Part shown: piece by piece, positions 45,697-49,807 of the stretch
Layout: each line of letters starts with the position of its first letter
Position numbering within the stretch: position 1 is the stretch's first letter
DNA from: Escherichia phage phiEC1
DNA: 64,000 bases
Sequence record: KY608965.1
Reading direction: 5' to 3' (one strand)
Position numbers and translations under genes: made by a program
Notes under the pieces: model-generated
What the model was told of the DNA's origin: nothing
Seen by the model: the letters and a program-made list of their open reading frames with translations, nothing else
The model's database searches: none

Positions 45697-45885
45697 TTAT
45701 TCGTAGAAGTCAGTAACTGTCCATGCGGAATTGCGATTAGACATTATTTTATTATACTCATCTTTAAAAGCAGATTTGAGCATTTGTTCAGTAACAATAT
45801 GTTCTTCACCTGAAAACGTATTGGTCAAAACATATTTTTTAATTTCAGGGACAACAAGAAGATGTTGTCCGGTTGAATACTCCAT
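45697..45885 (-). CDS. hypothetical protein (62 aa; 45.2 position)
   Basis: Start set to ATG with GGAGAA SD. Confidence 0.45.
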   Translation of the reverse strand: MEYSTGQHLLVVPEIKKYVLTNTFSGEEHIVTEQMLKSAFKDEYNKIMSNRNSAWTVTDFYE

Positions 45886-45939
45886 GTTGTTCTCCATTTA
45901 ATTTGATGTGGTCATTATAACCACATCGTGTTAAAGCGT

Positions 45940-47628
45940 TTATGAAACAGTCATCACAGTAAATCGTCCAACTTTGCTCATTTGAAGATGTTGTCCATAA
46001 GCTTGTGGGTCATGGTCTCTGTGACTAATTATAAACACGTTTGCATCGGTTAGAGAGTTAAGAATTGTTGAAATAGCTTTAATACCTTCAGAATCAGTCG
46101 CGGAATCCATGACTTCGTCCATAATTAATGTATTGATTCTAACACCAGAGATCTTTTCAGCAATATCTCGCCATGTAAACAACAATGCGATATCGATACG
46201 TGCCTTTTCACCTTGACTAAATGAAGCATAACTAAAATCTTCACGACCACGTGATTTTATAGATTCATTGAATTCTTCGTCAATAGAAAACACATAATCA
46301 GCTTCCATGATTTTAAGGTAATGGTTAATCTGCTTGTTGAACAGAGGCACATATTTTTTAATGATAGCACCTTTAATACCAGAATCTTTTAACATATCTG
46401 TTATAATACCACGATGGTATTTTTCAAGAACGATATCTGATTTTGTTTTAATGATTTTATCAAGTTCTTTTTGAAGCAAAGCTATCTCATCGGCATGGTC
46501 GATAAATTCCGCCGAGGCTTGTTCTATTGCAGCTTTAACTTTCTTAGCTTTATCAATAGTGGCAATCATTGCTTGTTTCTTAGTACGAATATCAGATGCA
46601 AGGTCCTGCTTAGTCTTAACATTAGCTCTATATTCGTCCACTAGGACACTCAGATTATCTCTGTGGCAGGTAAGTTGCTCGAATGAGTGATTACATTCAT
46701 GAAGCTTATCGGTAATCTTAGAGACAATAGGATCACCCTGGTGCAACTGTGATGCACAAGTAGGACATGTACCGCCATCATGATACATCTTAATAACTTT
46801 GTTATATGAGTCAATTTTAGATTTAATCAAGAATGCTTCTTGTCCTATCTTGTTGAATGCCTCAGTAGGGTCTTCGTCAAGAACGATATTAAGTAGACGC
46901 TCGTTAGCTTCTTCGATTTCTGCTTTTAATGAACGAGCTTCTTTAGCCAGGTCGTCATACATATTCTGTAGACGCGCTACATTATCACCAGATAATTTCT
47001 TTTGACGTTCGATATTCTCGTTATAAATCTTAATTTGTTGGATAATACCATCTTTCTTGGCATCGAGAACTTGCCCCTGGGAATTAAGTTCTCGAACTTG
47101 AGACTTATTGATTTTATCCATTTCAGCGAGTGTGCCAACTTCTAAAAGGTCTTCGACAAGTTTTCTACGAGCAGGGGTGCTAAGAGCCATGAAAGGGGTA
47201 TACCCTGCCGTCCCAAGCACAACGATTTGTTTAAAAGACGCGTATGACATTCCGATGCTACGTTCAAATTCTTCTTGGAAGTCACGACTGCTGGCAGATT
47301 CATCAAGACGAACACCGTCAACGGAGATTTCGAAAATATTGGGCTTTTGGCCACGTTTAATGAAGTATTTTTTACCATCGAATTCCATCCAAAGCTCAAC
47401 TAAGAGCTCTTTCTTGTTCGTGCTATTAATGATTTGTCCTTTCTTAACATCACGAAATGGTTTACCGAAAAGTCCGAAAGTAATGGCTTCTAACATCGTA
47501 GATTTACCACCGCCATTTTTACCTGTGATTAAGGTCTTTTGGACTTTATCTAATTGGATATCGATAAAATTTTGCCCAACAGACATTATATTTTTATAAC
47601 GAACACGATTTAATTTAAATGTTTTCAC
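45940..47628 (-). CDS. 46: recombination endonuclease subunit (SbcC/Rad50-like)
   Basis: 562 aa; Walker A GKNGGGKST, coiled-coil middle, CPTC zinc hook, signature/D-loop LIMDEV; start codon reads GTG preceded by GAGGAAAA. Confidence 0.9.
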   Translation of the reverse strand: MKTFKLNRVRYKNIMSVGQNFIDIQLDKVQKTLITGKNGGGKSTMLEAITFGLFGKPFRDVKKGQIINSTNKKELLVELWMEFDGKKYFIKRGQKPNIFEISVDGVRLDESASSRDFQEEFERSIGMSYASFKQIVVLGTAGYTPFMALSTPARRKLVEDLLEVGTLAEMDKINKSQVRELNSQGQVLDAKKDGIIQQIKIYNENIERQKKLSGDNVARLQNMYDDLAKEARSLKAEIEEANERLLNIVLDEDPTEAFNKIGQEAFLIKSKIDSYNKVIKMYHDGGTCPTCASQLHQGDPIVSKITDKLHECNHSFEQLTCHRDNLSVLVDEYRANVKTKQDLASDIRTKKQAMIATIDKAKKVKAAIEQASAEFIDHADEIALLQKELDKIIKTKSDIVLEKYHRGIITDMLKDSGIKGAIIKKYVPLFNKQINHYLKIMEADYVFSIDEEFNESIKSRGREDFSYASFSQGEKARIDIALLFTWRDIAEKISGVRINTLIMDEVMDSATDSEGIKAISTILNSLTDANVFIISHRDHDPQAYGQHLQMSKVGRFTVMTVS

Positions 47629-48475
47629 TTAAATTTTTCCTCATGAATTCAGAAACTAAAGCCTGTAAAGAACTTTGTATAGGATATCCTAAATTGACTA
47701 AATTTTTAGAAAAAGTCACATATTTAGGTTTGTTCATTTTAACCCATTCAACGTAAAGCATATCAAAATTTTCCCAATGATATCCTTTTCTTCTAGATTT
47801 CAAATGAGTGTCTCTAACTTTAGGATTTTTCCAACTGCGTGAAACTCCAGCCGATAATGATTCTCTATATTCGGCTGTTTTAGATATTTTACGACAAGCA
47901 TCCAAATGTTTTTGTTTATTAATAGGGTCACTAAACCACTTTTGGGTCATAATAGAGACGGTTTCTTTAAATTCCTTTGAACTTGTCATAATTCTGTGTT
48001 TCTTTAAATTTTCCGGATTTTTAAACCATGCTTTTAAAGCTTGACTAATCTTAATTCTATTATCCTGATTGGAATAGTATAATGTCATTTTTATAGAATT
48101 AACTTTACAAACATTTTCGAATTCTAAAGAATACGCCTCGGCTATATTATTTAGTTCATGCGTTGTACAATTTAAATTAAATCGCCCGGTATACATTCTT
48201 TGAAGCGCGTTAATCATCTTGTGGTTGCCAGTTTTTGCCAAAATGCTATGTGCAATAAAATGGTTATAATGACTTAAATGACACAAGTTCCATTTACATG
48301 TTTTAAAATCTGGAAAAATAGATTTTGGTAGTATATGGTGAACCTGAGTCAGTCCTTTTACTTTATTAGTGGAATTAGTTTTTATAAAGTTTAAATACTC
48401 ATCAAGTCCTTCCCACGAAGGGAAGGAGGTTTTAAGAATTTTATAAATTTGAGTTTCATAATCAGTCTTCGTCAT
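47615..48475 (-). CDS. free-standing HNH homing endonuclease with C-terminal repeated DNA-binding motifs (mobile element)
   Basis: Track start is TTG; ATG at 48475; HNH core VHHILPKSIFPDF...NLCHLSHYNHFIAH; three S...W.NP....KH repeats; overlaps gene 46 start and the upstream ORF by 14 nt each. Confidence 0.6.
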   Translation of the reverse strand: MTKTDYETQIYKILKTSFPSWEGLDEYLNFIKTNSTNKVKGLTQVHHILPKSIFPDFKTCKWNLCHLSHYNHFIAHSILAKTGNHKMINALQRMYTGRFNLNCTTHELNNIAEAYSLEFENVCKVNSIKMTLYYSNQDNRIKISQALKAWFKNPENLKKHRIMTSSKEFKETVSIMTQKWFSDPINKQKHLDACRKISKTAEYRESLSAGVSRSWKNPKVRDTHLKSRRKGYHWENFDMLYVEWVKMNKPKYVTFSKNLVNLGYPIQSSLQALVSEFMRKNLSENI

Positions 48476-48719
48476 TATACGCGTCCTCAATACATGCTTC
48501 AGCCATTTTAAGAATAGAACCAGGAGTATCGTTGTCCATTATATTAAAGCTAAATTCAATAGCCCAGTCTGTGCAGACATGAACTGCTTTAACTTCATTG
48601 CCTTCAACGCGTAATGGCTCGATCCAATACTTGATAGTGTTCTCGAATCCATCATCATCTTTAACGTCCATTTCGACTTCAAGCCTGAGTCCAGCATTGT
48701 TAAATTCATCTAAAGTCAT
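48462..48719 (-). CDS. hypothetical acidic protein (85 aa; 46.1 position)
   Basis: ATG start; ATGA coupling to gene 47. Confidence 0.5.
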   Translation of the reverse strand: MTLDEFNNAGLRLEVEMDVKDDDGFENTIKYWIEPLRVEGNEVKAVHVCTDWAIEFSFNIMDNDTPGSILKMAEACIEDAYNDED

Positions 48720-49735
48720 TGTGTTGCCTCAATATAAAGTTCGTTGGAATATTTGACCAGCGCTTCTCTGTCTTCATCTGAGATATCTGGAATCGCGTCA
48801 ATATATTCTTTAATGATATCTTGAAGTGATTTAATCTCGATTTCCTGGTCGTCATCAGATTCAACACTGTTATCAACTTTAGAAACCATACGAAGAGAGT
48901 GAACTACTTTTTCAAGTTCAGATTCAAACTTAGTCAACTCTGAATCAATTTCTGATACTATAACACGTAAGGCTAGATTAGTATAATCAGAATAATTGAT
49001 TTTGCCTTTAAACGGATAAGTGATTCGTCGATGCCATGTTGTTTCATTAGGAATAAATTCCATACGTTCAACATCAGTGTCAAATACCCAGAATCCGCGC
49101 GGGTCGTTCTCATCACCTGCAGTAAGTGTCCATGGTGTCCCAATATATTTGACGTTAGCAGCTTCAGAGATTGTGTGGAAGTGGCCGGACCAGACTTGTT
49201 TATAGGTCTTTAAGAAATCAGGTTCAAGCCCATGAGACTTCATTCCTTTATAGAAATAAAAGCCATTCAGTTCCCAGTGCCCAACACAATACGCGGCAGA
49301 AGAAGTCTTGATGTGCTCTAAGATTTCACCTGTATTTTCTTCACACATCCATGGAACGATATCAATTAGACATCCGTCAAAATCTACAGTAGTTGGATGT
49401 TCGTAAATAGTAAAGTTTTCAAATTGAGTTAACAATTCAGAAACAGTGTTAGGTGTTATTGTATTCTTAAACGCCATGTCATGGTTTCCTATCGTGACAT
49501 GAACGTGAATGCCTGCTTTAGAAATCATATCAACTATTTCACGATTGAATTCCATTGTACGATGTGTAATTGCTTTACGGACGTCGAACCAATCACCGTA
49601 CTGAATCCAAGTTTTAATCCCGTGTTTCTTAGAGTATTCAATTGCTTGACGAATACCATCACGTTGAATATCTTGAACCCATGGGTCATCTTGTTTGACT
49701 CCGATATGGAAGTCGCCTAAGTGCAAAATTTTCAT
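48716..49735 (-). CDS. 47: recombination nuclease subunit (SbcD/Mre11-like)
   Basis: 339 aa; phosphoesterase motifs LHLGDFH, GDWFD, GNHD, GHFH. Confidence 0.9.
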   Translation of the reverse strand: MKILHLGDFHIGVKQDDPWVQDIQRDGIRQAIEYSKKHGIKTWIQYGDWFDVRKAITHRTMEFNREIVDMISKAGIHVHVTIGNHDMAFKNTITPNTVSELLTQFENFTIYEHPTTVDFDGCLIDIVPWMCEENTGEILEHIKTSSAAYCVGHWELNGFYFYKGMKSHGLEPDFLKTYKQVWSGHFHTISEAANVKYIGTPWTLTAGDENDPRGFWVFDTDVERMEFIPNETTWHRRITYPFKGKINYSDYTNLALRVIVSEIDSELTKFESELEKVVHSLRMVSKVDNSVESDDDQEIEIKSLQDIIKEYIDAIPDISDEDREALVKYSNELYIEATQ

Positions 49736-49780
49736 ATTATTTCCTCATTAGTTAATTCATTCTATCATCCGTTTATAAAG

Positions 49781-49807
49781 CAAAAAAAGGAACTCCGAAG
49801 AGTTCCT
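49781..49807 (-). terminator. intrinsic terminator upstream of gene 47
   Basis: AGGAACU-CUUCGG-AGUUCCU hairpin followed by UUUUUUUG on the minus strand. Confidence 0.6.

Follow-up and report, generated by a model that had tools for sequence, protein, structure and literature searches.

Between the recombination genes 47 and 46 of Escherichia phage phiEC1, in the 64,000-nucleotide stretch of record KY608965.1 analysed here (the window), lies a gene that we assign to the free-standing HNH homing endonucleases of the T4 Mob type. The gene is a cassette that has replaced gene 46.1, and we consider it likely that its product, with an HNH core and NUMOD3-like repeats, cuts the allele carried by RB69-type relatives. 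The assignment, and with it the predicted endonuclease activity, is supported by sequence comparisons and by a structural model. The window comes from an RB69-like (Mosigvirus) phage of the T4 type, and the 3.9 kb around the endonuclease open reading frame (ORF) is 94-98% identical to Mosigvirus genomes. The gene and the two regions of the protein that carry the assignment are as follows.

47615-48475, minus strand: predicted free-standing Mob-type HNH homing endonuclease gene (286 amino acids; ATG at 48475, stop codon TAA at 47615-47617)
48236-48349, minus strand: predicted HNH (beta-beta-alpha-metal) catalytic core, residues 43-80, with H46, H47, N63, H72 and H76
47786-48097, minus strand: four helix-turn-helix repeat units, residues 127-230, a divergent NUMOD3-like putative DNA-binding region

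We base the HNH assignment on PHROG profiles, on a bridging homologue that passes the Pfam HNH threshold, on invariant residues and on the predicted fold. PHROG 655 ("homing endonuclease") matched the protein with E = 4.5e-31 and phrog_12434 ("HNH endonuclease") with E = 2.4e-12. In tblastn searches, T4 MobD was matched with 29% identity over 82% of the window protein (E = 6e-13), as were genes annotated mobC or mobE, and the protein of phage G2469 was 100% identical. The H-N-H pattern of the window protein reads VHHILPKS...WNL...HYNHFIAH. In an alignment of 115 homologues the only invariant residues were H46, H47, I48, L49, P50, N63, H72 and H76, so that the canonical HNH core announced by the original prediction is present, with its two paired histidines, its asparagine and its two distal histidines all conserved. 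One homologue, P0068, aligned to the window protein with E = 6e-19 and passed the Pfam HNH gathering score (21.7 versus 21.4 bits) exactly where it aligns to window residues 42-66; PF01844 was matched by only two of the 115 aligned homologues. The AlphaFold model built on this alignment had a predicted local distance difference test score (pLDDT) of about 97 for residues 10-200. It places the invariant HNH residues on a strand (43-47), a second strand (64-68) and a helix (69-80), in a beta-beta-alpha topology whose top structural match was an HNH endonuclease. Fold matches in BFVD were Mob-like, NUMOD3 and "nuclease associated modular domain" phage proteins, including T4 MobC. T4 Mob proteins have been classed in the His-Me finger superfamily (PMC5714182). 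Against the PDB, sequence searches (phmmer and profile hmmsearch) gave no significant match to any chain, and Foldseek found nothing at E <= 0.001; its matches to Teneurin chains and to a retron HNH complex had E of about 1-7. Pfam and NCBIfam scans of the protein, its halves and its two closest relatives yielded neither an HNH nor a NUMOD match; sub-threshold matches such as GerD and DUF1543 were discarded as noise.

The region that follows the core is repetitive. Two units, at residues 144 and 174, fit the pattern S-x5-W-x2-[ND]-P-x4-K-H without deviation; the third unit (SAGVSRSWKNPKVRDTH, residue 208) is shorter by one residue, and a degenerate fourth begins at residue 127. The three S...W.NP....KH repeats originally described are thus two exact units and a shortened one, with the degenerate unit besides. 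A double occurrence of W..[ND]P was reached in only 19 of 100,000 shuffles, and the model shows paired helices at residues 137-151/154-164, 167-182/184-198 and 201-216/218-229. The NUMOD3 profile was matched by 32 of the 115 homologues, and the window repeats align residue by residue with the Pfam-recognised NUMOD3 stretches of P0068 and P0101. On these grounds the repeats are probably divergent NUMOD3 derivatives beyond Pfam recognition. Together with the C-terminal region they presumably bind DNA.

On the minus strand the genes follow in the order 47, a small ORF homologous to gene 46.2, the endonuclease ORF, 46, 45.2, rpbA and 45. The neighbours of the endonuclease gene and its junction with upstream DNA are the following.

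45940-47628, minus strand: gene 46, Rad50/SbcC-like recombination nuclease subunit, adjacent to the endonuclease gene and probably its target
48462-48719, minus strand: gene 46.2 homologue (T4_Y03C family; RB69 annotation), the upstream neighbour, which is kept
48716-49735, minus strand: gene 47, Mre11/SbcD-like subunit, first in the 47-46.2-HNH-46 run of overlapping ORFs
48454-48475, minus strand: first 22 nucleotides (codons MTKTDYE) from the displaced gene 46.1, left cassette junction in the alignment with RB69

Both the ORF list and the sequence agree with the earlier claim of a 286-codon ORF at 47615-48475 that overlaps each neighbour by 14 nucleotides: it shares 47615-47628 with gene 46, which starts with GTG at 47628, and 48462-48475 with the upstream ORF. 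The ORF listing extends the frame to a TTG (47615-48490, minus strand), the 286-residue product being counted from the ATG at 48475. This ATG lies 8 nucleotides downstream of a GAGGA and is the same start codon as that of RB69 gene 46.1. Judged by its full-length homologues and by a ratio of nonsynonymous to synonymous substitutions (dN/dS) of 0.26-0.34 between endonuclease clades, with synonymous sites near saturation, the frame is not a chance ORF. No paralogue of the gene was found within the 64-kb window.

In RB69 and most of its relatives, gene 46.1 (DUF5487, 79 amino acids) stands where the window has the endonuclease gene. The sequences of the window and RB69 agree over the first 22 nucleotides of gene 46.1, ATGACGAAGACTGATTATGAAA, and then diverge. 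By this fusion the endonuclease ORF opens with the start and the first seven codons of 46.1 (RB69 gp46.1 begins MTKTDYEIHRHE), and nucleotides 23-240 of gene 46.1 were removed by the insertion. This comparison shows that the endonuclease gene replaces gene 46.1 only and takes over its start codon, ribosome-binding site and first seven codons. We also considered a simple insertion between 46.1 and 46, as in the T6-type phages described below, and rejected it since in the RB69 alignment 46.1 is replaced from codon 8 onward. The statement that T4 carries unrelated small ORFs at this place was accordingly right in part: gene 46.1 is indeed displaced, but the upstream neighbour is a homologue of gene 46.2 (Pfam PF25721, T4_Y03C, E = 5.6e-44).

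The mobility of the gene is evident from its distribution among Mosigvirus records, of which about 154 have flanks at least 90% identical to those of the window. Nine of these, representing eight distinct phages (F2 is present twice), have the endonuclease gene, always intact, and the remainder carry 46.1. When the window was compared with seven other carriers, the endonuclease gene differed at 0-4 of 861 nucleotides, against as many as 95 of 1540 in gene 46 and 153 of 1274 in genes 47 and 46.2. Near-identical copies between flanks that differ by up to 6-12% point to a recent horizontal spread of the gene. Moreover, the transferred unit is very tightly bounded in every carrier, with flanking polymorphism reaching up to both junctions, and the guanine-cytosine content of the gene is 30.1% compared with 37-39% in the flanks. 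A lineage-specific mobile insertion between 47 and 46 had been proposed from the window alone, together with a comparison of this interval among relatives; that comparison finds the gene sporadic rather than universal at the site and its copies near-identical across diverged backgrounds, in agreement with the proposal. RB69 itself has been listed without homing endonuclease genes (Petrov et al., PMC2993671). Existing GenBank labels for the gene are "MobD-like homing endonuclease", "HNH endonuclease" and "MobE mobile endonuclease", and our literature searches turned up general reviews and the table of Petrov et al., but no account of an endonuclease in the 46/47 interval. Two carriers, pEK20 and PNJ-9 (L010 and L011, 3063-4336), differ from all other Mosigviruses examined at about 145 of 1274 nucleotides of 47 and 46.2, mostly in the first 500 nucleotides of gene 47, although in the endonuclease gene they hardly depart from the other carriers. 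Gene 47 is thus strongly mosaic in this part, independently of where the cassette ends.

Relatives of the gene occupy the same locus in two other genera. A Melville-type homologue (Gelderlandvirus, 56% identity; annotated "MobD-like homing endonuclease" in Melville) and a T6-type homologue (Tequatrovirus, 45%) both lie immediately upstream of gene 46. They are the closest relatives of the window gene, with the same length, the same repeats and the same position, and are likewise sporadic in their genera. Their junctions differ, however. The T6-type ORF opens with 18 nucleotides identical to the T4 gene 46 start (GTGAAGAATTTTAAACTT), which places its insertion after nucleotide 18 of gene 46; behind the cassette gene 46 has a new start, and T6-type phages retain both 46.1 and 46.2. 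The Melville-type gene directly follows gene 47, whereas the window type replaces 46.1 only. The T6-type endonuclease is present in 71 records, all at least 95% identical, and one "other HNH" each is listed for T2, T6 and RB51 (Petrov et al., PMC2993671 Table 5). In T2 the copy (L005 2932-3784) is broken by a frameshift near residue 197 and carries two ORF annotations; it is a decaying member of the sister clade. The Melville type occurs in 5 of 16 Gelderlandvirus-like records, and the carriers Melville and SEA1 differ at 2 of 843 nucleotides in the endonuclease gene versus 79 of 1023 in gene 47. In STML-198 (L021 1120-1123) gene 46 overlaps gene 47 directly with no small ORF between, and S16 (L022 1204-1326) has one short 46.1-like ORF between them; the interval is thus very variable in Gelderlandvirus, where genes 46.1 and 46.2 are dispensable.

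The endonuclease gene does not travel alone, since the beginning of gene 46 differs along with it.

47567-47628, minus strand: gene 46 nucleotides 1-62, foreign patch accompanying the endonuclease gene, likely immunity or target region
47524-47566, minus strand: gene 46 nucleotides 63-105, where the co-converted tract ends variably (sites 66, 96 and 105)

We compared eight Mosigvirus genomes that have the endonuclease (the window and the seven carriers) with five RB69-type genomes. Thirteen fixed differences were found, at gene 46 nucleotides 1, 7, 34, 39, 42, 48, 51, 54-57, 61 and 62, eleven of them within nucleotides 34-62; in gene 47 or 46.2 the same genomes showed no fixed difference. A strict linkage of the 13 substitutions to the endonuclease gene was considered and rejected, because a search with gene 46 nucleotides 1-100 retrieved five Mosigviruses that carry the patch and still have 46.1: G2285, WFL6982, WFK, ESCO47 and PTE-Eco05. 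Four of these patch-only genomes were read base by base: they combine an RB69-type 46.1 and an ATG start with patch-type nucleotides 34-105, and G2285 has the patch-type base at nucleotide 7 as well. They sit in diverse backgrounds, with exchange points between nucleotides 1 and 34 and after nucleotide 105, and thus look like conversion tracts of variable length around nucleotides ~34-105. Sites 96 and 105 are C and A in seven of the eight carriers and in all four patch-only genomes, versus A and T in the carrier AV112 and in four of the five RB69-type genomes; AV112 has reverted at both sites.

An equally sharp-edged patch is seen, independently, in Gelderlandvirus. Melville and SEA1 differ from STML-198, which lacks the endonuclease, at 23 positions within gene 46 nucleotides 1-63, the next difference falling at nucleotide 117, and S16, also without the gene, shows a similar cluster against Melville within nucleotides 9-60. 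The right boundary of the patch is therefore alike in the carrier alleles of the two genera, at nucleotides 62-63. Over nucleotides 37-57, the carriers phiEC1 and Melville, of different genera, share 20 of 21 bases. Within a genus, by contrast, a carrier and a non-carrier share only 13 of 21 (the window versus RB69, Melville versus STML-198), and the two non-carriers RB69 and STML-198, from different genera, share 16 of 21. Either carrier allele matches T4 or Aplg8 at 19 of 21. This segment thus groups by endonuclease status and not by genus; from nucleotide 64 onward the grouping is by genus (97-99% identity within, 73-80% between genera). By these comparisons, the cassette carries a Tequatrovirus-like 5' piece of gene 46.

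Of the expression signals around the cassette, two lie within the endonuclease ORF.

47638-47642, minus strand: GAGGA ribosome-binding site for gene 46, within the 3' end of the endonuclease ORF, read from the sequence
47736-47762, minus strand: candidate T4-type middle promoter in the endonuclease ORF, ~135 nucleotides upstream of gene 46, a consensus match only

As far as sequence scans can show, the cassette is without a recognisable promoter or translation start of its own: a sigma-70 promoter scan of the region gave 15 matches compared with 16.3 expected in shuffled sequence, no better than chance. The candidate middle promoter consists of a MotA box (TATGCTTTA), a 12-nucleotide spacer and TAAAAT. 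The Melville gene conserves it at the corresponding place (L004 3678-3704), and RB69 46.1/46.2 lacks it; the element could serve gene 46 as a promoter brought in by the cassette, or be a mere by-product of conserved codons. Going upstream on the coding strand, the nearest MotA-box candidate is found ahead of gene 47, at 49784. There, a terminator-like hairpin (49788-49807, minus strand) is directly followed by a MotA-box-like middle promoter (49758-49784, minus strand), an element also conserved in RB69, which is likely the start of a 47-46.2-HNH-46 transcription unit. Along with the ribosome-binding site, the cassette gives gene 46 a GTG start in carriers instead of the ATG of RB69. In phage 172859UKE1 (MZ234025.1, L007 541-2187) gene 46 is annotated from an internal ATG at codon 15, apparently because the carrier allele starts with GTG; the cassette has thus led to a mis-annotation in this record.

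The gene 46 product is a Rad50-like nuclease subunit, and break repair, hence homing itself, depends on gene 46. In a mixed infection, the enzyme would nick or cut the endonuclease-free, RB69-type allele, most likely within gene 46 nucleotides ~8-113. The break would then be repaired by T4-type recombination-dependent repair with the carrier genome as template, and the recipient would thereby acquire the patch allele, in most cases together with the endonuclease gene. The patch allele of the carrier itself would presumably resist cutting. We infer this mechanism from the known behaviour of MobE, MobA and SegG (PMC2988022). The cut site probably lies in nucleotides ~8-113, because five Mosigviruses have the patch without the endonuclease, if these phages are products of endonuclease-induced repair; a break inside the converted segment would also explain the presumed resistance of the patch allele.

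Several observations weigh against this reading. At E <= 1 no Pfam or NCBIfam HNH model (PF01844, PF13392, PF13395 and others) matched the whole protein, and the N-terminal 102 residues matched no HNH family at E <= 10. The original prediction had named the absence of an HNH domain in profile searches as evidence against itself, and these two collections indeed miss it, while the PHROG profiles recognise it. Pfam NUMOD3 (PF07460) was likewise not matched at E <= 10 by the protein, by the repeat region alone or by the Aplg8 and Melville relatives, so that the prediction of homing-endonuclease DNA-binding modules stands on the alignment with the NUMOD3 repeats of homologues and not on Pfam. As to the target, the patch edge at nucleotides 63/64 may mark only where homeologous recombination could resolve, because it coincides with the start of a block conserved across genera. 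Moreover, the patch-only genomes may have arisen by ordinary recombination or may represent the ancestral background into which the gene was inserted, and the base-by-base sample comprises five RB69-type and four patch-only genomes.

The most serious competing explanation keeps an active homing endonuclease and moves its site into 46.1 or the 46.1/46 junction, where the replacement itself would have destroyed it; the gene 46 patch would then be hitch-hiking donor DNA bounded where cross-genus homology begins. Removal of 46.1 nucleotides 23-240 would indeed be a classic route to immunity of the carrier allele, the T6-type relative, inserted after nucleotide 18 of gene 46, also disrupts the 46.1/46 junction region, and the patch stops exactly at the start of the conserved ATTGATAT... 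block. The patch-only genomes speak against a site in 46.1: they keep an RB69-type 46.1 and 46.1/46 junction and are nevertheless converted at nucleotides 34-105, and break-initiated conversion should include the break site. Furthermore, the Gelderlandvirus carrier alleles show the same patch although STML-198 is without any ORF between 47 and 46. We regard this explanation as unlikely, with perhaps one chance in four in its favour.

It is less probable still that the gene is a passenger, inactive or domesticated, without any current nuclease-driven drive, and that its near-identity among carriers stems from general recombination among co-infecting T4-like phages. These genomes are highly mosaic (PMC2993671), and the frameshifted T2 copy of the sister clade tells us that decay occurs. 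However, all nine Mosigvirus copies are intact with invariant catalytic residues, purifying selection is apparent between clades, and a tightly bounded unit in every carrier, repeated in a second genus, fits repeated short conversion tracts better than random crossovers; we therefore consider the passenger explanation improbable. Least credible of all, and in our opinion very improbable, is a protein devoid of nuclease activity, made of NUMOD-like repeats, that binds DNA and regulates the 47-46 operon. It would account for the failure of curated HNH profiles and for a candidate middle promoter of gene 46 inside the ORF, but not for the invariant H-H...N...H...H residues, the beta-beta-alpha model with an HNH endonuclease as its top structural match, the homologues that pass the Pfam HNH threshold, or the fact that most close relatives do without the gene.

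A Mob-type homing endonuclease that cuts the RB69-type gene 46 allele could be part of a broader history, which we put forward tentatively and with somewhat less than even confidence. One HNH clade would have established itself at the gene 46 5' end in three or more T4-like genera, carrying with it its own resistant, Tequatrovirus-like first ~63 nucleotides. It would cut the alternative allele around CAAAACATYATGTCRGTRGGYGG (nucleotides ~34-57) and so bring about the exchange of a part of an essential recombination gene, with and without co-transfer of the endonuclease, the patch-only phages being natural products of this process. If true, this locus would be a natural, multi-genus record of endonuclease-driven allele replacement, in which the target sequence is directly predicted.

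Immediately downstream of gene 46, a further putative homing endonuclease gene, oriented the other way, was observed in F2, G2469, G2285, ESCO47 and Aplg8 (L003 1-493, L009 1-493, L017 3885-4499, L019 3885-4499 and L006 5483-6199, respectively). It is called mobB-like in the Aplg8 record, and in the four other phages it occupies the place of gene 45.2, which the window keeps (compared region 45697-45897). Gene 46 can thus have a selfish nuclease gene on each side.

Mosaicism and partial exclusion between T4-like phages arise in large part from free-standing homing endonucleases. The present gene changes no concept in this field; what it contributes is a further, uncharacterised Mob-type lineage, which in three genera keeps to a single site at the 5' end of gene 46. 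The value of the finding lies in this three-genus association and in a testable target prediction, as natural variants narrow the probable target to about 100 bp. RB69-type phages would presumably be susceptible recipients, WFL6982 and G2285 resistant without the endonuclease, and G2469 and SQ17 donors. Since the reference RB69 is without homing endonuclease genes, RB69-like phages used in therapy or typing differ in their selfish content.

To our knowledge, MobE and MobA are the only members of the Mob (HNH) group with any experimental data. Each nicks a single strand of its target, which lies in a neighbouring essential gene, and is over-inherited when phages co-infect (PMC2988022); we propose the same adjacent-gene logic for gene 46. 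Among the MobE-like proteins found, similarity to the window protein is confined to the N-terminal ~90 residues. T4 MobD, MobC and MobB, putative HNH enzymes, resemble it in having an N-terminal HNH core followed by a C-terminal DNA-binding region, with homology in sequence to MobD and a match in fold to MobC. Like the T4 Mob genes, the window gene is free-standing, co-oriented with its neighbours, overlaps the upstream ORF and depends on upstream signals (PMC2988022). It differs from mobD in its place, upstream of gene 46 instead of at nrdC.11/mobD.1, and the two sequences are only distantly related; MobD has no demonstrated activity or known target (PMC2988022), so that the likeness carries no biochemical detail. 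Two HNH enzymes of solved structure, I-HmuI and the GVE2 HNH endonuclease, gave no significant sequence match, and the window protein is without a Cys4 zinc site. For the patch, the closest parallel comes from SegG and SegF, GIY-YIG enzymes unrelated to HNH, which cut a neighbouring gene at a distance, co-convert flanking markers and cause marker exclusion (PMC2988022, PMC2993671). For the window system such behaviour is suggested by natural variation only; in co-conversion of the SegG/SegF type, some progeny gain the flanking allele without the endonuclease gene, which matches what we see in the patch-only genomes.

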